Shown here: positions 3,173 through 51,505 of the stretch, in pieces | How the letters are laid out: every line of letters starts with the position of its first letter | Position numbering within the stretch: the stretch's first letter is position 1 | DNA from: Dehalococcoidia bacterium | GTDB lineage: Bacteria > Chloroflexota > Dehalococcoidia > SM23-28-2 > RBG-16-64-32 | NCBI GenBank assembly: GCA_034408935.1 | Contig: DAOUMV010000013.1 | Location: forward strand, 50,759-114,758 | Direction of reading: 5' to 3' | Length of the DNA stretch: 64,000 nucleotides | Position numbers and translations under genes: made by a program | The notes under the pieces: generated by a model | What the model saw: the letters and a program-made list of their open reading frames with translations, nothing else | Told to the model about the DNA's origin: nothing | Database searches by the model: none

Positions 3173-4855
3173 CTACAGCCAGCGGGAGCTGATGTCGCCG
3201 TCGATGACGATGTCCACCACCCGTGGCTCCTGCGCCGCCTGCGCTTCCCGAACTGCATCACCGATCTGGTCCGGGTGCTCGACGCGGACCCCTTCGACGC
3301 CGAAGGAGGCAGCGATGCGTGAGAAGTCCAGCGGCGGGTCTGTGAGGTCCATAGCGATAGAGCGACGGCCGGGAGCGTCTCCACCCAGGTACTCCAGCAT
3401 GTTGAGCTTGAGGATGCGATAGGACGCGTTGTTGGCGACGACCCAAGTGACCGGGACGCTGTGGTGGGCAGCCGTCCACAACGCCTGGATGGTGTACAGA
3501 GCGGCGCCGTCACCGATGACGGAGAGGACGGGCCGATCCGGGCGCGCTAGCTTGATTCCGATCGGGTTGGGCATGCCCGGGCCCAGCCCGCCGCCGGCGG
3601 CCCGGTAGTGCGTTCCCGGCTCCGACATACGCAGGTGGCGCATGACGAAGCCGCCCGTCGTTATGGACTCGTCAAACAGGACGGTGCCGGGGGCGATGGC
3701 GCCAGCCAGCTCCTTGGCCATCCGGGCGGGCGCTATGGGCACGCCGTCCCACTTGGCCTGCGCGGAGGAGTCCATAGCCTGCATCGTCTGGCGAACCATC
3801 TCCTGGATCGCCTGAGCGCGGCGCTGGGCCGCGTCACGGTAGTCGGGGGTCAGGTGCTTCTGAAGTGCGGCCAGCAAATCGGCCAAGGCCATCTTGGGAT
3901 CGGCCATGATGCCGTGCTGGACGGGCCAGTTCTTGGATATCTCCCACGGATTGAGATCGATATGGATTACGGGGGCCCGCGGTGGGAAGGGCGGCTCGGC
4001 GAAGGGGAAGAGGAGGGTGAGAATCGGGGTGCCCACGGCCAGGACGACATCAGCCCCGGAGAGCTGACTTCGTAAGGCGGGCTCCGAGATCACATTCAAC
4101 AGGCCAGCATACAGGGGATGGTCGGCGGGAAAGGGCATCTCCGCGGCGAAGGAGGAGTGCACGCGGGCGCCCAGCGTCTCTGCAAGCCGGACGAGCTCCG
4201 ATTGCGCGCCTGATGTGGCGACGCCCGCCCCGCAGACGATGACGGGCGTTTGCGCATCGATCAGAACCTGGGCGATCCGCTCGACCGCCTCCGGGTCAGG
4301 GCGGATACGGGTGTTGGTGTAGGCCGTGGGGACGGTGTCTACCTCCGCCTCTTCGTCCATGACGTTGGTGGGTATGGACAGAAAGACGGGTCCCCGCGGC
4401 GGCTCCATGGCCGCCTTGAACGCGCGACGCAGCAGCACAGGGATCTCGCCAGCGTCCTCGACATGAGCCGCCCACTTCGTCACGGGTTCCGCCATGCGCA
4501 CCAGATCGCCGAAGAGGATGGGCTCCTGAGAGCTCCCGTGCTGGGGGTGCTGGCCGGCATAGACCACCATGGGGGTCTGGGTACGGTAGGCGTTGTAGAG
4601 CATCCCCATAGCGTTGCCCAGGCCGGGGTTGATATGCAGTTGGACGAAGGAGGGCCGGTCCGTGGCCCGGGAGTAGCCGTCGGCGATGCCCACGGCCACG
4701 GACTCGTGCAGGGCCAGGATGTACTGGAGTTGGGGGTAGTCCTGTAGGGCATCGATGAACGCCTCCTCCGTGGTGCCGGGATTGCCGAAGATGTGGGTGA
4801 CGCCATCAGTCACCAACTGCTCCAAGAAAGCGTAGCGGCCGGTCAGCCTGGGCAT
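3173..4855 (-). CDS. Thiamine pyrophosphate-dependent enzyme (acetolactate synthase large subunit / benzoylformate decarboxylase family)
   Basis: TPP N-terminal, central and C-terminal domain motifs (GNPGTTEE..., GxGxxG-like, GDGA...N TPP-binding motif GDGAALYTIQALWTAAHHSVPVTWVVANN); start set at MPRLTG to avoid tRNA overlap. Confidence 0.8.
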   Translation of the reverse strand: MPRLTGRYAFLEQLVTDGVTHIFGNPGTTEEAFIDALQDYPQLQYILALHESVAVGIADGYSRATDRPSFVQLHINPGLGNAMGMLYNAYRTQTPMVVYAGQHPQHGSSQEPILFGDLVRMAEPVTKWAAHVEDAGEIPVLLRRAFKAAMEPPRGPVFLSIPTNVMDEEAEVDTVPTAYTNTRIRPDPEAVERIAQVLIDAQTPVIVCGAGVATSGAQSELVRLAETLGARVHSSFAAEMPFPADHPLYAGLLNVISEPALRSQLSGADVVLAVGTPILTLLFPFAEPPFPPRAPVIHIDLNPWEISKNWPVQHGIMADPKMALADLLAALQKHLTPDYRDAAQRRAQAIQEMVRQTMQAMDSSAQAKWDGVPIAPARMAKELAGAIAPGTVLFDESITTGGFVMRHLRMSEPGTHYRAAGGGLGPGMPNPIGIKLARPDRPVLSVIGDGAALYTIQALWTAAHHSVPVTWVVANNASYRILKLNMLEYLGGDAPGRRSIAMDLTDPPLDFSRIAASFGVEGVRVEHPDQIGDAVREAQAAQEPRVVDIVIDGDISSRWL

Positions 4856-4943
4856 GGCAGGCGCTCCTTTCGAGGGATAATGCGGGCAGACGGCAGGGCG
4901 ATAGGGCGAGGCGACAGGCGCCTCGCCCCAATTTGTGGCTGTC

Positions 4944-5229: not shown

Positions 5230-5898
5230 ATGCCAAAACTCAAGCCGGAAGAGGTGGAGCGCCGGCGGCAGGAGATTATTGACGCCGCCCGCTGCTGCTT
5301 CCTGCGCAACGGCTTCCACCAGACCACGACCGACGAGATCTGCCACGAGGCGGCTATCACCCCTGGCGGCCTCTACCACTACTTCGGTAGCAAGGAAGAG
5401 ATCATCAGCGCCGTCATCGAGGACACGGCGCGAGCCACCGTCGAAAACCTGAGGTCAACTGCGGAAGCGTCAGGTGACGTGCGCTCGGCAATTCAGGCTC
5501 TGGCCTCGGAGTTCTTCGAGCGAGCACGCGACCCTCAGATCGAGAACACGACCCAACTGGACCTGGAGATCTGGGCTGAGGCACTGCGAAATGAGAAGCT
5601 CGCGAAGATCACGCGGGGAGGCCGGGCGCTGCGGCGGCAGTGGCTAGAGTCCCTGATCCGCAACGGGAAATCACAGGGACCCTACACCAACCAGGTCGAC
5701 CCCAAGGGATTCGCCGATCTAATCATGGCGATCTTCGACGGGTTGCGCCTGGGCAGGTTACTGTGGCGGGACGACTTCGACCTGGAGGGTGCTCTCCAGT
5801 CGCTAGTCCTGATGTACACTGGCCGCCTCACCAACGGGACGGACATCGCCCGGGCACCGGAGGTAGCACGCTCGAGCAGAGGCCGCAGATCAGGCTAG
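5230..5898 (+). CDS. TetR/AcrR family transcriptional regulator
   Basis: N-terminal TetR HTH (RRRQEIIDAARCCFLRNGFHQTTTDEICHEAAITPGGLYHYFGSKEEI). Confidence 0.9.
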   Translation: MPKLKPEEVERRRQEIIDAARCCFLRNGFHQTTTDEICHEAAITPGGLYHYFGSKEEIISAVIEDTARATVENLRSTAEASGDVRSAIQALASEFFERARDPQIENTTQLDLEIWAEALRNEKLAKITRGGRALRRQWLESLIRNGKSQGPYTNQVDPKGFADLIMAIFDGLRLGRLLWRDDFDLEGALQSLVLMYTGRLTNGTDIARAPEVARSSRGRRSG

Positions 5899-8197: not shown

Positions 8198-9094
8198 CTA
8201 GCCGCGCAGGCTGCGCAGCGCCGCTCGCAAGTCCGCTGGCAGCGGCGACTCGAACTCCACCAGGCGGCCGCTAGACGGCAGCTCGAAGGCCAGCCGCCAG
8301 GCGTGCAAGAACTGCCGCCCCACCAGCGGCGAGCGCCTCCCGTAGACGCCGTCGCCGACCACCGGGTGACCGATGGCGGCCAGATGAACACGTACCTGGT
8401 GAGTTCGCCCCGTTACCGGCTCCACCTCCAGGAGGGCGAACCGGTCCAGCGCCTCGCGTACGCGGTACTTCGTCTCCGCCTCGCGACCGCCGGCCACCAC
8501 CGCCATCTTCTTGCGGTTCCGGGGGTGTCGGCCGATGGGCGCTTCGATTGTGCCCTCAGGCGGCTGAGGCGACCCCTGCACCAGCGCAAGGTAAGTCTTG
8601 TGCACCTCTCGTTCCTTGAGCTGATGGGTCAGGCTGGCCCGGGCGCGCTCGCTCCTGGCGACGACCAACAGCCCCGAGGTGTCCCTGTCCAGACGATGGA
8701 CGATCCCCGGCCGCATCGCCTCTCGCGCCTCCGCCAACTCCGGCGCGATGGCCAGCAGGGCGTTCACCAGCGTGCCGCTGGGGTGCCCCGGCGCCGGGTG
8801 TACGGTGAGCCCCGCCGGCTTGTCCACGACGATGACGTCTTCGTCCTGGTAGATGACTGTGAGCGGGATGGGTTCCGCCGCCGGTTTCGCCTCCTCCACG
8901 GGGGGCAGGGTCGCCTCGACGCGCGCGCCGGAGACGAGGTTGTGGGAGGGGCGCTCCCGCCTGCCGTCCACTGTCACCAGCCCCTCGTCGATGAGGCGAC
9001 GAGCGTGGCTGCGGGACAGGCCGTCCACGCGGCGGGCCAGGAAGACGTCCAGCCTCTCGCCCGGCCTATCCGCCGCCAGTTCCAGCGTCTTCAT
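8198..9094 (-). CDS. rluD: RluA-family 23S rRNA pseudouridine synthase (RluD-like) with S4 domain
   Basis: S4 RNA-binding N-terminus, catalytic HRLDRDTSGLLVVAR motif. Confidence 0.88.
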   Translation of the reverse strand: MKTLELAADRPGERLDVFLARRVDGLSRSHARRLIDEGLVTVDGRRERPSHNLVSGARVEATLPPVEEAKPAAEPIPLTVIYQDEDVIVVDKPAGLTVHPAPGHPSGTLVNALLAIAPELAEAREAMRPGIVHRLDRDTSGLLVVARSERARASLTHQLKEREVHKTYLALVQGSPQPPEGTIEAPIGRHPRNRKKMAVVAGGREAETKYRVREALDRFALLEVEPVTGRTHQVRVHLAAIGHPVVGDGVYGRRSPLVGRQFLHAWRLAFELPSSGRLVEFESPLPADLRAALRSLRG

Positions 9095-9572
9095 TCTCGG
9101 CTCCAGGCGGCGGAGGCTTGGCGAAGATCGAATATCCCAGCAGCAGGACAGCGATGCCTATGACGATGGAGGAGTCGGCCACGTTGAAGGCTGGCCAGAA
9201 CGGGAAGTCGATGAAGTCGGTGACTCTCCCCAGGCGCAGCCGATCCACCAAGTTGCCGATGGCGCCCCCCAGCATCATCCCGATGGCGGCGGGCGCCACC
9301 AGATGCTCGAAGGGCGGGTACCGATAGTACAGGTAGATGGCGGCCAAGCCGATTACCGTGGTAACGATGAGAAACCCGGTCTGATCCTTAAGTATCCCGA
9401 AGGCAGCGCCAGTATTAGTGACATAATGCAGGCGCACAGGCCAGCCGTCCGGCCACGCGTCCCCGCGGTCCATAAGCGTCCGTACCAGTTCCTTGCTGGC
9501 CTGGTCCAGGGCCAGGACGACGAGGGCAGCACCGATGAATAGGAAGCGGCGCAAGCGGGACGTAGTGGGCAT
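9066..9572 (-). CDS. lspA: Lipoprotein signal peptidase II
   Basis: Four TM helices; conserved NTGAAFG and FNVADS motifs; start chosen at MPTTSRL. Confidence 0.85.
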   Translation of the reverse strand: MPTTSRLRRFLFIGAALVVLALDQASKELVRTLMDRGDAWPDGWPVRLHYVTNTGAAFGILKDQTGFLIVTTVIGLAAIYLYYRYPPFEHLVAPAAIGMMLGGAIGNLVDRLRLGRVTDFIDFPFWPAFNVADSSIVIGIAVLLLGYSIFAKPPPPGAENEDAGTGGG

Positions 9573-9770
9573 GGGGATGACGGAGTTCGTCGCCTCGACT
9601 GTGGGCATCGCTTTCGATGATAGCACGGGCGAAGAGGGGACTGATGCCCAATGCGAGCGGCCAGGGGATGGGACAGCGGTTCGCCCGAGATACACCCAGG
9701 TTTGACGCCAGCTATGGGCGGTTGCTATCCTCAAGTCGACGCTTGCCGCGCGTTAGAAAGGCCACCGCTC

Positions 9771-10373
9771 TTGACTTTCGACCTCCTGTCCCGTCGCTCC
9801 AGAGACCGTGAGAGATACGGCGACCGCCTGCCCCCCGGCCAGAAGGTGGTGGAGGACTGGCCCGTCTTCACCTACGCGGGCACGCCGCAGATCGACACGG
9901 AAGAATGGCGGCTGCGCATTTACGGCGCCGTCGAGCGAGAAGTGCAGTTCACGTGGGAGGAGTTCCGAGCCCTACCTACCGCCACCGTCACCTGCGACAT
10001 CCACTGCGTGACCTCATGGAGCCGCATGGACAACCGGTTCGAGGGCGTCCTCTTCCGAGCGCTGCTGGAGCACTTCCGGCCCCTGCCGTCGGCCGAGGGC
10101 GTCATGGTCCACTGCTACGGCGGTTACACCACCAACGTCCCCCTGGCCGACCTCATGCAGGAGAACGTGCTCTTGGCCTACAAGCACGACGGTAAGGAGC
10201 TGACGCCGCCCCACGGCTGGCCCCTGCGGCTGGTGATACCTCATCTCTACTTCTGGAAGAGCGCCAAGTGGGTGCGCGCTCTGGAGTTCATAGAGAGAGA
10301 CGAGCCTGGCTTCTGGGAGAGGTACGGCTATCATATGCGTGGCGACCCCTGGAAAGAGGAGCGCTATTCGTGA
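9771..10373 (+). CDS. Sulfite oxidase-like molybdopterin-binding oxidoreductase (YuiH/MsrP-like catalytic domain)
   Basis: Moco-binding domain motifs (LPPGQ, CVTSWS, HGWPLRLVIPHLYFWKSAKWV); TTG start with GAAAGG RBS. Confidence 0.7.
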   Translation: MTFDLLSRRSRDRERYGDRLPPGQKVVEDWPVFTYAGTPQIDTEEWRLRIYGAVEREVQFTWEEFRALPTATVTCDIHCVTSWSRMDNRFEGVLFRALLEHFRPLPSAEGVMVHCYGGYTTNVPLADLMQENVLLAYKHDGKELTPPHGWPLRLVIPHLYFWKSAKWVRALEFIERDEPGFWERYGYHMRGDPWKEERYS

Positions 10374-14737: not shown

Positions 14738-14811
14738 GCGGGCGTAGCTCAGTGGTAGAGCTCCTGCCTTCCAAGCAGGTCACACGGGTTCGATTCCCGT
14801 CGCCCGCTCCA
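14738..14811 (+). tRNA. tRNA-Gly (anticodon UCC)
   Basis: GCGGGCGUAGCUCAGUGGUAGAGC..., anticodon loop CUUCCAA, T-loop GGTTCGATTCC, CCA encoded. Confidence 0.85.
14767..14811 (+). repeat. attL (45-bp, 3' half of tRNA-Gly)
   Basis: CCTTCCAAGCAGGTCACACGGGTTCGATTCCCGTCGCCCGCTCCA identical to 18900-18944. Confidence 0.8.
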
Positions 14812-14868
14812 TTTGACAATTAGCCGCTCATCTGCGAATCTAAAAGTGCCAAGTTTCGGAGGTGAGCG

Positions 14869-15822
14869 ATGACCAAGCAAGACACCACCCTGCACCGGAA
14901 AGCGCCTAATGTTACCCTGCCCGACGAACCCCTTGTGACCGGCTGGGAGCTTGCCATGAGGGCGTCGGGGCGGGCCGACAAGACGTTGACGACCTACCTT
15001 GACACCCTGAATGCCCTGCGCCGCTTCCTGGCCGAGCGGGGGATGCCGGGGCTGACGGAGGTGACGACGGAGCACCTGCGCGAGTGGTTCAACGATCTGT
15101 ACCAGCGCGGGAACAAGCCCGCTACCGTCAGCGTCAGGTATCGGGCCATGCAGCAGTTCTTCAAGTGGCTCGTGACGGAGGGGGAGCGCAAGGACAATCC
15201 CCTAGAGCGAGTGGCCCCGCCCAAGGTGCCGGAGGAGCTTCAGCCCGACTATAAGCCGGAAGACATCGAGGCGATCCTCGCGGCGATCCCCGCCAACAGC
15301 AAGGACCCGCTCCTGTTGCGGGATCGGGCGATCCTTCTCACTCTGTATGACACCGGCCTGCGGGGGGCGGAGCTATGCGGCGTCATGGTCGATGATCTCG
15401 ATTGGCGCGAGTTGACGATCACCGTGCGACAAGGCAAAGCGGGCAAGCAGCGGGTCGTCAGCATCGGCCCCGTCGCGGCTCAGGCCATCGAACGCTACCT
15501 CCGGCGTCGGGGCATCGATGTTCCTTATCTCTTTGCTACGCGAGAGCAAGGCCCGATGACGCCCAACGCCATCAGGCAGATTCTAGGTCGGTTGTTCAAG
15601 CGGGCGGGCGTAGAGTTCAGGGGCACCCACGGCTTCCGGCGATCTTTCGCCCTGCAATTCCTGAACAACGGCGGCGACCCCTCCGACCTGCGGGCGATCT
15701 GTGGCTGGTCAAGCTATGCTATGCTTCGACGGTACACTGCCGCACAGGAGACGGAGCGGGCGATCCGCGCTCACCGCAAATACTCCCCTGCGTCGCATCT
15801 CAGGTTGAAGGGAAAGCGCTGA
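14869..15822 (+). CDS. int: Tyrosine-type site-specific integrase
   Basis: N-terminal SAM-like domain; catalytic R..HxxR..Y region (LRDRAILLTLYDTGLRGAEL, HGFRRSFA, LRRYT). Confidence 0.88.
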   Translation: MTKQDTTLHRKAPNVTLPDEPLVTGWELAMRASGRADKTLTTYLDTLNALRRFLAERGMPGLTEVTTEHLREWFNDLYQRGNKPATVSVRYRAMQQFFKWLVTEGERKDNPLERVAPPKVPEELQPDYKPEDIEAILAAIPANSKDPLLLRDRAILLTLYDTGLRGAELCGVMVDDLDWRELTITVRQGKAGKQRVVSIGPVAAQAIERYLRRRGIDVPYLFATREQGPMTPNAIRQILGRLFKRAGVEFRGTHGFRRSFALQFLNNGGDPSDLRAICGWSSYAMLRRYTAAQETERAIRAHRKYSPASHLRLKGKR

Positions 15823-15990
15823 GAGAGCCACGAGAACGTTAGGCCAGACGACCGGCTGGCACACCCGCTGGCCGGTCGTTCGTATCTGGGGCTGACTGTC
15901 AAGCGTGCTCCCTGAGTCGCCCTGACGCCCTGAGAAGCACGAGAAGGGCCGTGTATTCGAGGGGGCGCAGCCGAGGTCACACTTGGGCCG

Positions 15991-16422
15991 CTAGCCGCCC
16001 TCGCGGTGCCATTCCGCGATGCGACGCTGGAAAGCCTCTAGCTCGCTCTCCTCCGGCTCGTCTAGATAGATATAGATCGTGCCATCCGGCCCGACTTCCA
16101 CATCCCTTTCGGGGCGACGCACGCGACGGTTGAAGCGTTGGATCGCTACTCTCATTCGGTCGGGAGCGTTGGCATCATCGGGAGGATCGGCCACCCTGGA
16201 GCAGAGTTCGTCCCAGATTTCCTCTGCGCTCTTCTTGCGGTAGGGAGGCAGGCAAGCCGTCAACTGCTGGTGGAGCCAAGCTTGGGCATCGCGTGTGGTG
16301 TTCTTACGGGGACGGCCACGCTTGCGCCGCTCCCGTTTGGGCCGACCTACGGGAGCTTCCCACACAGTCTCCCATCTGCGCCCGTCGCGGTCGTGTCTAA
16401 CCAGTGGCCTATGCCGCCCCAT
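15991..16422 (-). CDS. Element-encoded basic protein with AT-hook-like GRP motifs
   Basis: VGRPKRERRKRGRPRKN; possibly leaderless (TAAAAT 6 nt upstream of ATG). Confidence 0.4.
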   Translation of the reverse strand: MGRHRPLVRHDRDGRRWETVWEAPVGRPKRERRKRGRPRKNTTRDAQAWLHQQLTACLPPYRKKSAEEIWDELCSRVADPPDDANAPDRMRVAIQRFNRRVRRPERDVEVGPDGTIYIYLDEPEESELEAFQRRIAEWHREGG

Positions 16423-16788
16423 ATGTCAATTTTAGCATGGGTTTCTGTTCGTGACTCCTAGGGGGAGAGCGTGCAGACTGGAGGCATGAACGCCGACGAT
16501 CCGCTGGATGCCAAGCTACGGGAGGAGCGAAATAGGCGGGCCAACCTCCGCCGCAGGCTCGCGGCCCTGGCCCAACACCGCGCAGCCCGACTGCCCGACG
16601 GCAGGTCGGCTATCGCCGTCAAGGGTGGGCTGATCGGAGGCAGGCGTCGAGCGGAGCAACACCCTGGCGGGCCGAAGGGACTAGGCACCGAGCTAGCCGC
16701 CCGGAGGTGGCATCCCAGCCTCTTCAGACACGACGGCGGCACAGGAGTTGCAGATCGTCGTGGTCAACGACCTACCCGCCGTGCCGTA

Positions 16789-16837
16789 AAAAACCGACAA
16801 GAAAACCCTCTAAGGACAGGGGCATCGTCGGTTTTTA
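16789..16837 (+). terminator. Terminator-like hairpin (AAAACCGAC...GTCGGTTTTT)
   Basis: 10-bp outer stem with inner 4-bp stem, followed by T-run; lies inside six-frame ORF 16471..16899, arguing that ORF is not coding. Confidence 0.35.
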
Positions 16838-16916
16838 AGGGCGGACAACCGAATACGCAGAGGATGGTGGCGCTAGGCGGGAGCGCCCTGCACCTGTGAC
16901 ACCGAGAGGAGGTTCA

Positions 16917-17429
16917 ATGATGAAGCCAATCGAGGTCAAGTTGACCAACGCCGAGATCGCTGCGGCGAAAGCGGAAGCGAGAATCATCCGAAAGGGGGCG
17001 GAACGGCGAGACCTGCCGACCGAGTTCTTAGGCGAGGCATGGGTGTTCATGATACACTGGGCCTTTCTCAAATACGTCGCGTTGCACACAGACCTGACCG
17101 TTGCAGGCGGCCTTCCCTACATCGGCCCGGCTGAACGCTTCCCGGTTCATTTTGTGCTCCATCGCGGGGATGAGCGGATTGAGGTAGACCTTCGCCCTGT
17201 GAGCGAGAAGCAACTCGCCAGCTACCCCTTTGTGGATTGGTCAGAGTGGAGACGCCAGCACATTCGACAATTCACAGTGATCGCCGTGGTGAGGGACAGC
17301 CATGTCACCTTTCGAGGAGCGGCAAAGGCAGAGGACTTGCTTGCAGCGATGGAACCTCACCCTGAAAGCGACTATCGGACGCGGCTCAACGTATTCCGTC
17401 TCGAAACGCTTCACGAGTTGCTACGCTAG
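16917..17429 (+). CDS. Element-encoded hypothetical protein (170 aa)
   Basis: Strong RBS GAGAGGAGG 6 nt upstream of ATG; no recognised domain. Confidence 0.5.
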   Translation: MMKPIEVKLTNAEIAAAKAEARIIRKGAERRDLPTEFLGEAWVFMIHWAFLKYVALHTDLTVAGGLPYIGPAERFPVHFVLHRGDERIEVDLRPVSEKQLASYPFVDWSEWRRQHIRQFTVIAVVRDSHVTFRGAAKAEDLLAAMEPHPESDYRTRLNVFRLETLHELLR

Positions 17430-18047
17430 CGCCTTTGACGACGTTCGACCCCTTTAGCTCCTCAGTCCGCTCCCTTACGATGTTGCGGGCTGCCCCCTGT
17501 CGATTCGGCCTTCGGCCTCTTCGACAGGCATTTCGTTGGCTGGGGCGTGTTAGTCCTGTGAGAGCGACTAGCCCAAGGTTAGCCCGCCCTGACATCACCA
17601 TGAACGCCTAATTGAGCCGTGCCGGAGGCCCGATCTGGCCCCGATTCGTATCTACGGCGGGTAGGCAGACGACCCCCTAACTGCCCAGCAGGTAGCCGTA
17701 GGGCTGTGCCATTCGGCGTGTGTGAAAGACCTTCCGGTAAGGTGGGGGTGCCCAAAAGGAAGATCGCTGAGGCCGTGCGAGCCTCTGCTGTGCAACCCGA
17801 CGCTCTTGCCGAACGCCCTCCGCCGAAATGCGTTAGTGCGGCTAGGACTAGAGGGAATTGGGAAGTAATGTTCTAGCGCAGGTCGCGGGTTCGAGTCCTG
17901 CCGCAGCGCCCCGTTGACATCTTCCCAGAACGGGCGCACAATCGGGCCAGCGGGCGGGCGTTAGGCACGGTCTTGCGTTGCGAGGCCGGAGGTTTGTCCG
18001 CCGCTGTGCAATTGGGACGCGCGGGCGCTGATCAAAGGGGGTCGGAC

Positions 18048-18542
18048 GTGCGTATCGCCGGATTGTCAATCCTGCTTTCAGCCCTGCTGACCGTGGCGTG
18101 TACCGGCGGCGGCACCAGTGATGGGCAATCACCGACTGTTGACCCTACACAACCACCGATGCAAACGATACGGGGCACGCTGACACTTACTGAGGGATTC
18201 TACCCACCGCGCTATCAACCATGGGGTGAAACGCTCTACTTCGACGGAGACCTATGCTATGGGAAAGGCGGCTATGACGATATCAAGGAGGGAGCGCAAG
18301 TGACAATTCGGGACGAGACGGATACCGTCATCGCGGCTGGACGCCTGTCGGAGGGCCAGATTAAGACAACAGAACTAGGTCTCGACCTCGTGTCTGCCGA
18401 CTGCATCTTTCTATTTGAAGTGACCGACGTTCCTTCAGCCAACTTCTACACGGTCGAAGTGAGCCACCGTGGGGGTCTCACCTATTCCCTTGATGAGATG
18501 GACGCCCTCGACTGGGAAGTCTCCCTCTCATTGGGAGACTAA
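18048..18542 (+). CDS. Element-encoded putative lipoprotein
   Basis: GTG start with AAAGGGGG RBS; signal peptide + lipobox LTVAC; Cys-rich mature domain. Confidence 0.5.
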   Translation: MRIAGLSILLSALLTVACTGGGTSDGQSPTVDPTQPPMQTIRGTLTLTEGFYPPRYQPWGETLYFDGDLCYGKGGYDDIKEGAQVTIRDETDTVIAAGRLSEGQIKTTELGLDLVSADCIFLFEVTDVPSANFYTVEVSHRGGLTYSLDEMDALDWEVSLSLGD

Positions 18543-18899
18543 GCCAACCGGCCCCACCACGCCTGCCACGGCGATGTCGAGTGAAGATGGCGGCGATAGA
18601 GGGGCATTGAAACCCGCCTAGCCCTGGCACACAATACCAGCACCATGAGATGATGGGCCGTCTGGATCACCGCAGTCGTAATCCTGGCCCTGCTCAACGG
18701 CATCGTGTGGACGCTAGTGGTAGCGCGGTAATGCAGCATGCCAGTCGGCATGATGACTTGGGAACCGTGGCCCCCGCCATGCTGTACAATGGGGTGAGAA
18801 TATCCTCCCAGTGCGCCTAACTGTCACCAGTTTGCAGATACAACAGGGGCGAAAACAAGAGAAAAACTGCGACTGATCAGCGCGCATGCGAGGAAATAC

Positions 18900-18944
18900 C
18901 TTCCAAGCAGGTCACACGGGTTCGATTCCCGTCGCCCGCTCCAG
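18900..18944 (+). repeat. attR (45-bp copy of tRNA-Gly 3' half)
   Basis: Exact copy of 14767-14811 without the 5' half of the tRNA. Confidence 0.8.
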
Positions 18945-41405: not shown

Positions 41406-41480
41406 GGGCCCGTAGCTCAAGGGCAGAGCGACCGGCTCATAACCGGTTGGTTGGAGGTTCGAATCCTCCCGGGCCCACCA
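41406..41480 (+). tRNA. tRNA-Met (anticodon CAU; elongator or Ile2-type)
   Basis: GGGCCCGUAGCUCAAGGGCAGAGC..., anticodon loop CUCAUAA, T-loop GGTTCGAATCC, CCA encoded. Confidence 0.8.
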
Positions 41481-41594
41481 TTCTCGTGACATCATGTGAC
41501 GGCGCGAGCGCATCAGGATTTTCGAGCAGCTTGTGATCGAGCCGCATGCGCCAACCCGATTGACGGCCTCGGCCGACGGCGTAGGCGCCAACTG

Positions 41595-42701
41595 ATGGCT
41601 GAAGGACCACCAAAGCCAAGGCTGCTCTCCGATCCTTCAGCGGCGGACGGCCGCTGGTTCACCGAGGTGCTTCAGTACGCCGGTGTGCTGGATGACGCAG
41701 TGGTGACGCGGGTCGAGCGCCAGCGGATCGGCACGGGGTTGGTCGGGCAGAACGTCGCGTTCTCGCTCACCTACGACAGACCCGCGCCGGATGCCCCTGC
41801 GAGTGTGGTGGGCAAGTTCCCTTCGCCGGAGCCGCAGAGCCGAGCGACCGCGAAGGCGTTGCGCCTGTTCGAACGCGAAGTTGGCTTTTACCGAGAGATC
41901 GCCGAGACGGTGGATATCCGAGTCCCTACCTGCTACCTCGCCGACATCGATCTGGATACGCACGACTTCGTCTTGCTTCTCGAGGACCTTCGCCCCGCAG
42001 TACAGGGTGACCAGCTCGCTGGATGTACCATCGACCAGGCGATGCTGGCGATGGATGAGCTTGCAGGTCTACACGCGCCCCGTTGGGGCGACCCGATGCT
42101 GGCGAAGATTGAGTGGCTGGGCCAGTATGACGACGCACAATCGCACGAGACGATCCAAAGCATGTACCAGGCCCTATGGCCGGGCTTCGCCGCGAAGTAC
42201 GACTCCTCACTCACCCCCGATGCGCTGGCGCTCGGCGACGCGTTTGGCGCCTCGCTCAGCGATTGGCGGCGGTCATGGACACCGCCCTGCTGTGTCACGC
42301 ATGGGGACTACCGTTTGGACAACATGATGTTCGGCACTGAGGAGGGCGGCTACCCGCTAACAACAGTCGACTGGCAAACCGTCGGCCACGGGCCGGGAAT
42401 CTTGGATGCAGCATACTTCATCGGCAACGGACTCCGCGTGCCCGACCGCCGCGCACATGAGATGGACTTGCTGAAACGGTATCACGATGGCCTGAGCGCT
42501 CGGGGCGTAGACGGCTACGAATGGAACCAGTGCCTCGCGGACTACAGGCGTGCGACGCTGTCAGGCGTCCTCATGACGGTCGTCGCCTCGCAGGTCGTCG
42601 CGTCCGACGATCGCGGGGACGCGATGTTTGCGGCCATGGCGGAGCGCCACTTCGCGCACGCCGCCGATCATCATGCCGGTGACACCCTGACCCGCCCGTA
42701 G
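41595..42701 (+). CDS. Phosphotransferase-family (APH/ecdysteroid-kinase-like) protein
   Basis: Brenner motif HGDYRLDN and DWQ motif. Confidence 0.7.
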   Translation: MAEGPPKPRLLSDPSAADGRWFTEVLQYAGVLDDAVVTRVERQRIGTGLVGQNVAFSLTYDRPAPDAPASVVGKFPSPEPQSRATAKALRLFEREVGFYREIAETVDIRVPTCYLADIDLDTHDFVLLLEDLRPAVQGDQLAGCTIDQAMLAMDELAGLHAPRWGDPMLAKIEWLGQYDDAQSHETIQSMYQALWPGFAAKYDSSLTPDALALGDAFGASLSDWRRSWTPPCCVTHGDYRLDNMMFGTEEGGYPLTTVDWQTVGHGPGILDAAYFIGNGLRVPDRRAHEMDLLKRYHDGLSARGVDGYEWNQCLADYRRATLSGVLMTVVASQVVASDDRGDAMFAAMAERHFAHAADHHAGDTLTRP

Positions 42702-50386: not shown

Positions 50387-51505
50387 TCATCCCCTGTAGT
50401 CGCTTGGGAACGCGGCCAGAGTAGCCGACAGCTCCAGGGTGTCCTCTCCACGAACCACGGTCAGCGTCACGTCGTCTCCCGCCTTTTTGCCGTTCAGGAA
50501 GCTGATCAGGTCCTCGATGCTTTCAACCGGCTCTCCGTCGACGGCGGTGATGACGTCCCCACCTGCGTCGGGTTCCCCCTGAAACGTAGTGCCACCGCCC
50601 CGGAGCCCGGCGTCATCGGCCGGACTTCCGGAGACGACATCCAACACGTATGCTCCCCGGTCGACCGTGAGGTCTAGGGCTTCCGCCATCTCGCCGGTGA
50701 GGGTCGTGCCGCCGATCCCCAGCCAAGGGCGTTCAACCGTGCTCCCTTCCGTCAGGCGGGACAGGACTCCCTTGGCGGTATCGATTGGGACAGCGAAGCC
50801 CACTCCGTCCGCTGACTGACTTTCGATGGCGGTGTTGACGCCGATGACCTCCCCGTCAGAGTCGAGTAAGGGCCCGCCGGAGTTGCCGGGGTTGAGAGCG
50901 GCATCGGTCTGGATGACGCCGGTGATGGGGCGGCCGTCGTCACCGGTCAGGCTCCGGTCGAGGCCGCTGACGACGCCGACGGTTATCGTGCCCTCAAGCT
51001 CGTAGGGGCTGCCGAGGGCGATGGCCATCTGGCCCGGCTGCAGGTCGGTGGAGTCCCCCAAAGTGAGGGGCGTGATGTCCGAGACCTCAGAAGCGTCAAC
51101 CTCCACCAGGGCGAGGTCGTCCGCGGAATCGACCCCGAGCACCTCACCATCGAGCTCTGTGTCGTCGCTGAGGGTCACGGTCACGCTGGATGCGTCGTCC
51201 ACTACGTGACTGTTGGTGAGGATGTGCCCCGCGTCATCGATGAGAAACCCTGATCCGGTGCCTACGCCCACGCTAATCTGGACCACGGCTGGGATCGCCT
51301 CATCGTAGATGTCAACTACCTGCTGCTCTTCGACCAACGCTGGCCCCGTTGCCACGGGCTCCGCCTGGACCGACTCCTCTGCAGCAGTGTCCGCGGCAGA
51401 GGTGCCCGACTCAGAGCCGGAGTCAAGGCTCAGGGCCACGAGCGAGATGGCAAGCGCAGCGATGGCCATAAGGGCCGTCACTCCCAACGCGAGCTTCGTC
51501 TTCAT
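50387..51505 (-). CDS. htrA: HtrA/DegP-family serine protease with PDZ domain
   Basis: Catalytic triad context (TNSHVV, DLALV, GNSGGPL), C-terminal PDZ; signal/TM N-terminus. Confidence 0.9.

Follow-up and report, generated by a model that had tools for sequence, protein, structure and literature searches.

Overall features of the tRNA-Gly locus

A tRNA-Gly(UCC) gene in the genome of an uncultured Dehalococcoidia bacterium (assembly GCA_034408935.1, contig DAOUMV010000013.1) is followed by a 4,132-bp segment, which very probably represents a site-specific integrative element. The window analysed here is the whole 64-kb stretch that surrounds this element (64,000 nucleotides, contig positions 50,759 to 114,758). 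Coordinates refer to the window unless a locus of a relative, designated by an L-number, is named. The target gene, the attachment (att) cores and the integrase gene are arranged as follows:

14738-14811, plus strand: tRNA-Gly(UCC), called by ARAGORN and by the Rfam tRNA model (73.8 bits); same sequence as the tRNA-Gly of the related empty-site locus L003
14767-14811, plus strand: attL core, exact repeat; the 45-bp identity block spans the tRNA from anticodon loop to CCA
14869-15822, plus strand: tyrosine integrase, Xer-like, 317 aa; Pfam PF00589 (4.8e-32), PF02899 and PF13495; PHROG integrase
18899-18943, plus strand: attR core, the displaced native tRNA-Gly 3' part; exact repeat, with right-hand sequence that aligns downstream of the L003 tRNA-Gly

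The 45-mer CCTTCCAAGCAGGTCACACGGGTTCGATTCCCGTCGCCCGCTCCA comprises the last 45 bp of the tRNA-Gly gene. Exactly two copies, 45/45 identical, are present in the window. No third copy with up to three mismatches was found there, and none is expected from shuffled sequences. The attR copy lacks the tRNA 5' half. At attL, a replacement 3' part provided by the element keeps the tRNA-Gly gene intact. The 45-mer is thus not a common genomic repeat. These results agree well with the initial annotation, which had reported tRNA-Gly(UCC) followed by a tyrosine integrase, an exact 45-bp repeat, and a second repeat copy without the tRNA 5' half. The recombinase open reading frame (ORF) is intact, and only the coordinates of the second copy, given as 18900-18944, were one base off.

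Integrase

The integrase ORF begins 57 bp past the end of the tRNA-Gly gene. The protein consists of a SAM-like N-terminal core-binding domain and a catalytic domain. Alignment to E. coli XerD (1a0p) revealed that the catalytic residues are all present, namely R, K, HxxR, W (replacing the second His), and Y. An arm-binding N-terminal domain is absent, and the ORF leaves no room for one.

The nearest solved structures and NCBIfam models are those of the XerC/XerD resolvases, which share the two-domain layout without an arm-binding domain. Unlike these resolvases, the integrase gene of the window lies inside a foreign segment that is flanked by tRNA repeats and absent from L003. Its scores against the XerC and XerD NCBIfam equivalogs are 156 and 149 bits, below the cut-offs of 335 and 330. 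An assignment to chromosomal XerC/XerD was rejected on the basis of these scores and of the absence of the gene from the empty site. A second integrase match was not found in the 64-kb window.

Empty site, sister alleles, and base composition

Judged by the flanking acyl-CoA synthetase, the host is an uncultured Dehalococcoidia. Four allelic states of the tRNA-Gly/synthetase junction were revealed among the relatives: an empty site, the window element, a sister element, and an unrelated gene. The empty-site allele, which the initial annotation had suggested seeking in relatives, is present in L003, with flanks conserved on both sides. This locus belongs to a related Dehalococcoidia metagenome-assembled genome, the closest relative, whose acyl-CoA synthetase is 84% identical. 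Here, tRNA-Gly ends at 2962 and the synthetase gene starts at 3225, leaving a gap of 262 bp. The 45-mer occurs in one copy, and the sequence after CCA aligns with the window flank to the right of attR. The gene order (lipoprotein, response regulator, tRNA-Gly, and synthetase) is kept. In L003, about 880 bp of extra DNA (2011-2889), including a 113-aa ORF, is located between the response regulator gene and the tRNA.

In L087, a sister element takes up the same tRNA-Gly locus. The orthologous response regulator (78% identical) is present there, and the tRNA is followed by the integrase of the sister element (72% identical to that of the window) and then by different genes. The sister element ends in a fragment on the minus strand (L087 2544-2804) that, judged by eye, resembles the C-terminus of a DDE transposase (…IERFFQALKYEHLY…). 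In L004 (region 8498-10001), the gap between tRNA-Gly and the synthetase gene contains a 402-aa ORF, with neither integrase nor repeat. By visual inspection, the encoded protein looks like a cytochrome P450.

GC content at third codon positions (GC3) is 0.61-0.69 in the cargo ORFs, 0.81 in the integrase gene, and 0.83-0.89 in the host genes. Base composition by codon position marks the segment as foreign. The low cargo values match the lower-GC interior described initially, and the interpretation of the locus as an integrative island at tRNA-Gly is upheld by the exact att repeats, the empty site in a relative, the foreign composition, and the lack of detectable phage structural genes.

Family of related elements

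The search for integrase relatives gave 656 matches, with hundreds at 45-72% identity. Where genomic context was available, their genes lie at the left end of larger elements adjoining tRNA genes; the integrases of these larger elements are 45-60% identical to that of the window, and most of the elements also have a replication gene. The targets are tRNA-Gly(UCC) in the window and L087, tRNA-Gly(CCC) in L091, tRNA-Met in L086, and tRNA-Arg(UCU) in L083, L090, L093, L094, and L096. In the sole fully delimited relative, L086, two copies of a 47-bp stretch from the tRNA-Met 3' end, 96% identical (2 mismatches), enclose 9,335 bp.

The content of the relatives includes the integrase gene, an unknown protein of about 280-330 aa, small helix-turn-helix (HTH) or ribbon-helix-helix (RHH) proteins, a small basic protein, a replication protein, and further unknown genes. 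A replication gene (Prim-Pol/AAA_25 or DUF3631) is present in L083-L086 and L088. Searches of the window element against Pfam and PHROG revealed no replication, transfer, or packaging gene, and tblastn detected no remnant of the Prim-Pol, AAA_25, or DUF3631 proteins of the relatives. The element retains the following family features: the left-arm promoter, a 12-bp terminal inverted repeat, the right arm, a hallmark small basic protein, and the promoter module located upstream of the lipoprotein gene. Members of the family were not found in IMG/VR.

A 4,124-bp contig in the Logan assembly of SRR15532676 encodes a family integrase (P0026), a 594-aa Prim-Pol/AAA_25 protein, and three small ORFs. 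It may represent a minimal replicative member of the family.

The window region 41406-42701 contains a tRNA-Met gene, followed within 16 bp by a 401-aa ORF of the APH/EcKL type. Since this ORF encodes a phosphotransferase and not an integrase, the tRNA-Met site is unoccupied. The presence of a second element at this site was accordingly rejected, given the APH/EcKL-type kinase encoded next to the tRNA and the lack of any displaced tRNA fragment.

Arms, promoters, and terminal inverted repeats

Several conserved motifs were identified at the two ends and in the interior of the element:

14813-14841, plus strand: left arm, with a promoter-like module of the integrase gene (TTGACA, 17 nt, GAATCT) and the left terminal inverted repeat; conserved in 8 family loci
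14814-14825, plus strand: left terminal inverted repeat TGACAATTAGCC, 2 nt past the attL core
17908-17942, plus strand: promoter-like module CCCCG-TTGACA, 17 nt, CACAAT, upstream of the lipoprotein gene; 10/12 consensus matches
18810-18876, no strand: conserved right-arm segment, 82% identical to L084 9502-9568 and 77% to L086 18066-18127
18815-18826, minus strand: right terminal inverted repeat TGACAGTTAGGC, 72 nt before the attR core

In all eight loci examined, CCA is directly followed by TTGACA, a 17-nt spacer, and GAATAT (GAATCT in the window), and then by a ribosome-binding site and the integrase gene. The integrase promoter therefore abuts the recombination core. The 12-mer TGACARTTAGSC has exactly two occurrences in the window, in inverted orientation, with none expected by chance. 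A looser 11-mer, TGACARTTAGR, is found in related loci solely at left ends (plus strand) and right ends (minus strand). The spacing between the right motif and the core is 72 nt in the window and 74 nt in L086. As judged from sequence conservation, the 12-bp motifs are family-conserved terminal inverted repeats that mark both ends of the element.

The right arm corresponds to positions 18543-18898. A promoter scan placed the right inverted repeat within an inward-facing promoter-like sequence (GTGACA, 17 nt, GATATT). The internal module CCCCG-TTGACA-N17-CACAAT recurs twice in L083, at 4872-4915 and 5631-5674. The conserved arm motifs may serve as accessory sites and the hallmark protein as an accessory factor, with directionality control among their possible roles.

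Cargo genes

Four genes are located to the right of the integrase gene:

15991-16422, minus strand: ORF143, divergent from the hallmark gene; its product is basic and has a pair of AT-hook-like GRP motifs
16471-16899 (alternative start ATG at 16486), plus strand: hallmark small basic protein; conserved core at about 16519-16734
16917-17429, plus strand: ORF170, a cargo protein; GC2 (second codon positions) 0.40, typical of coding sequence
18048-18542, plus strand: lipoprotein, a cargo protein of 164 aa with lipobox LTVAC and a beta-sandwich domain

The hallmark protein has counterparts in nine related loci, encoded by ORFs of 76-96 aa at 41-55% identity (tblastn, E = 4e-7 to 1e-19), and identity within its core reaches 64%. 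In several relatives, the gene is located directly upstream of a primase or helicase gene. Conservation does not extend to the tail of the ORF, which runs across a hairpin at 16783-16842 (GCCGTAAAAAACCGAC / GTCGGTTTTTAAGGGC). Profile searches of Pfam, PHROGs, and PDB gave nothing significant for this protein, and the ORF was missed by the Logan gene caller.

The base composition of ORF143 (GC1/2/3 of 0.70/0.51/0.69) fits coding sequence. Its GRP motifs, which we take to be of the AT-hook type, make the protein a candidate regulator or architectural DNA-binding factor. Searches against 5.8 billion clusters retrieved ORF143 itself alone, and no match was found in Pfam, PHROG, NCBIfam, or PADLOC. 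ORF170 likewise retrieved only itself from these clusters, with no Pfam, PHROG, or PADLOC match and no phage match by tblastn. The sole NCBIfam match of ORF170 is sub-threshold (E = 0.022, 14 bits vs a cut-off of 100), and its single-sequence AlphaFold2 model is poor, with a predicted local distance difference test score of 48.

The lipoprotein, for which a confident beta-sandwich model was obtained, belongs to a family with 3,363 cluster representatives at E <= 1e-3 (homologues P0123-P0272). It possesses three Cys residues, that of the lipobox and two other conserved ones. The family has neither a Pfam model nor a solved relative detectable by sequence and is, therefore, a candidate new domain family, which could be registered as such. 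One homologue, 48% identical, is encoded between genes for a short-chain dehydrogenase and RelA/SpoT. As this is an ordinary chromosomal setting, the copy in the element is regarded as captured cellular cargo.

The cargo gives no immediate functional lead. The initial annotation had listed three unknown proteins, and for ORF143 and ORF170 the lack of homologues is in agreement, but the fourth, conserved gene (16471/16486-16899) had been overlooked. The description of the third protein as a Cys-rich unknown lipoprotein had to be abandoned: it has just three Cys, including that of the lipobox, and belongs to a large cellular family rather than being an orphan. None of the four cargo proteins has a match to known defence proteins in PADLOC, and the possibility of an anti-phage defence island was rejected on this basis.

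Gene-free DNA and an att-like site

Two stretches of the element contain no gene, 17430-18047 and 18543-18898. The first of these includes:

17430-17869, no strand: featureless spacer, not coding, conserved, or structured
17870-17919, plus strand: att-like site, presumably fossil, resembling a tRNA 3' part with TTCTA anticodon loop, T-arm GCGGGTTCGAGTCCTGC, and acceptor strand, followed by GTTGACA

The ORF-free DNA noted in the initial annotation was thus found, but it is not empty throughout, since it includes the right arm and a promoter module, both conserved, as well as the att-like site. The spacer has no Rfam match, and its folding z-scores (-0.73 and -0.65) are no better than those of shuffled sequence, so that a hidden non-coding RNA was dismissed. 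At E < 0.01, similarity of the spacer to relatives is limited to one weak short tblastn match at 17594-17671 (E = 0.004, 26 aa) to an unannotated minus-frame ORF of L084/L085. A decayed primase/helicase pseudogene in the ORF-free stretch was also rejected, as tblastn with the proteins of relatives gave no signal.

The att-like site shares 80% identity over 40 bp with attL of L083, which is located at tRNA-Arg(UCU), and 71% with the attL block of the window. Its layout is that of the real attL, and a tRNA 5' half is missing; ARAGORN did not call it as a tRNA. It is possibly a fossil att site, either acquired by recombination with an Arg-targeting relative or inherited from one. The assignment to Arg(UCU) is tentative: the TTCTA loop, the T-arm, and the identity to L083 fit, but the acceptor strand differs.

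Proposed mode of integration

Taken together, the observed integration anatomy, the empty site, the family membership, the foreign composition, and an integrase with all catalytic residues make it very probable that the locus is a genuine, 4,132-bp site-specific integrative element and a reduced member of a tycheposon-like family in the Chloroflexota. According to the proposed mechanism, the Xer-like integrase would recombine the 45-bp attP core with the identical stretch of tRNA-Gly, from the anticodon loop to CCA. The incoming replacement 3' half would keep the tRNA intact at attL, and the native 3' half would be shifted to attR. The integrase promoter abuts the core, and the inverted 12-bp family motif is present at both ends. 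The identity blocks of the window and of L086 both start at the anticodon loop. The anticodon loop is a common crossover sublocation in integration into tRNA genes. The start of the identity block places the crossover most likely in or near this loop.

The att cores match at 45/45 positions, while those of L086 have two mismatches, which suggests that the event was recent or that activity continues. Excision and reintegration of the element are probable; autonomous replication or intercellular movement would not be possible, because it has no replication or transfer gene. An excised circle would only reintegrate or rely on helpers. The element carries three private genes, and the lipoprotein, a captured cellular surface protein, is proposed to be expressed from its own promoter.

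Several points weigh against this interpretation. The assembly data gave no direct sign of excision. In the Logan assembly of SRR14802572, the element appears as a separate 4,147-bp contig that ends exactly 30 bases into each 45-bp repeat. It was rejected as evidence of a circular form, since ends located k-1 bases into a repeat are the expected de Bruijn break at k = 31. No recognisable excisionase was found either, and an integrase without an arm-binding domain offers no obvious role for the conserved arm motifs. The exact element is on record in one copy, and its mobility is thus without support from multiple insertions. Also, the term reduced assumes that the larger form is ancestral, while a minimal core that gained modules would imply the opposite direction.

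The features that suggest reduction may also be read as decay. It is conceivable, though rather unlikely, that a replicative element of 9-10 kb lost its replication and regulatory genes by deletion, leaving an immobile islet of integrase plus debris that is inherited vertically. Most relatives possess the replication module that is absent here, about 440 bp of the element is featureless, unconserved, and unstructured, and the hallmark ORF has an unconserved tail that runs through a hairpin. In addition, the -10 box of the integrase promoter (GAATCT) deviates from that of the family (GAATAT), and a single copy of the element is known. Such decay is difficult to reconcile with att repeats that are 45/45 identical, while those of the full-size L086 differ at 2 of 47 positions, or with a full-length integrase that keeps every catalytic residue and two intact arm motifs. 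Pseudogene fragments of family genes were not detected.

The same combination of retained and missing parts would be expected of a non-autonomous mini element, akin to satellites or mobilisable elements, that relies on full-length relatives or a co-resident virus for replication and transfer. Namely, the family arms, the terminal inverted repeat, the promoter module, and the hallmark protein are kept, the replication genes are absent, and the exact att repeats suggest recent integration. Small forms do exist, as another family member occupies a 4,124-bp contig. We nevertheless consider this version improbable. The 64-kb window shows no helper element (the tRNA-Met site is unoccupied and a second integrase match is lacking), the viral contig collections contain no family member, the element is known from a single copy, and nothing ties the hallmark protein to replication or packaging. 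Equally doubtful is an extension of this idea, in which a functional mini element hitch-hikes on full-length relatives and the core-plus-promoter module may have been duplicated internally as a portable cargo promoter; such reuse is suggested by the position of the tRNA-Arg-like site upstream of the lipoprotein gene.

An origin of the locus in the assembly process is highly improbable. A circular episome with attP and an empty chromosomal attB could have been joined across the shared 45 bp: at k = 31 the two states cannot be told apart in the graph, and the Logan contigs do end in the repeat. However, one contig of about 351 kb spans both junctions, and the k-mers or reads behind assemblies of this sort are normally longer than 45 bp. 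In L087, a single contig carries the orthologous response regulator gene and tRNA-Gly with the sister element immediately behind it, and both junctions of L086 are contained in one contig. Even if the junctions were an artefact, the biology, that is, an integrative element targeting tRNA-Gly, would be unchanged.

Comparison with known integrative elements

The reading as a reduced integrative element is in line with established groups of mobile elements. In the definition used for Islander (PMC4383910), a tyrosine integrase gene lies beside an intact tRNA gene, the island restores the gene that it split, and a displaced 3' fragment marks the far end. The window element resembles islands of this type in having an integrase next to an intact tRNA, a displaced 3' direct repeat, and an empty-site allele. 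It differs in its unusually small size of 4.1 kb and in its host lineage, the poorly sampled uncultured Dehalococcoidia.

The tycheposons of Prochlorococcus combine an integration module of about 1 kb, a primase/helicase module of 2-4 kb, and cargo, and have no capsid or conjugation genes; their islands hold scattered partial tRNAs and degenerate remnants (bioRxiv 10.1101/2020.12.28.424599). The relatives L083-L088 share this modular plan. The window element itself consists of a tRNA-targeting tyrosine recombinase and cargo without capsid or conjugation genes, and contains an internal partial tRNA. In contrast to tycheposons, it occurs in another phylum and the window copy has no replication module; a hallmark protein and a terminal inverted repeat of their own also set the family members apart. 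This comparison concerns the plan of the elements; the integrase of the window is Xer-like.

With phage-inducible chromosomal islands (PICIs) and other phage satellites, the element shares an integrase at one end and an adjoining divergent pair of small genes, and its relatives carry a primase-type replication gene. In contrast to these satellites, the window element has no genes for packaging, capsid redirection, or interference, and its size is 4.1 kb vs 10-20 kb for PICIs. A prophage or phage satellite was therefore rejected: PHROGs matches are confined to the integrase, and there is no phage, plasmid, or IMG/VR match. The initial view that the locus is too small for a prophage is consistent with its 4.1 kb and with the absence of detectable phage structural genes. 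Likewise, searches for genes of integrative and conjugative or mobilisable elements revealed no relaxase or type IV secretion match in Pfam/NCBIfam and no plasmid similarity.

The element is genuine and has clear limits, yet it is of an ordinary kind; the family is undescribed yet of the conventional tRNA-targeting type. The current understanding of tRNA-targeting integrative elements is unchanged by this locus. Mobile elements of uncultured Dehalococcoidia are poorly described, and the locus provides a cleanly delimited example with att sites, an empty site, and a sister element. The shared cis sites and the hallmark protein make the family systematically searchable.

Repeats within related elements

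Internal repeats were observed in two relatives. Ten tandem copies of a 102-bp unit are present on the minus strand of L084 (7980-9197), within a 619-aa gene of this sister element. In L086, a small HTH gene contains two exact 18-bp direct repeats (CGGGACTCACCGTTGAGG) located 33 bp apart (9996-10046). A further direct repeat of 44 bp, 91% identical, is located near the right end of L086, with its copies (16560-16603 and 17961-18004) 1.4 kb apart.

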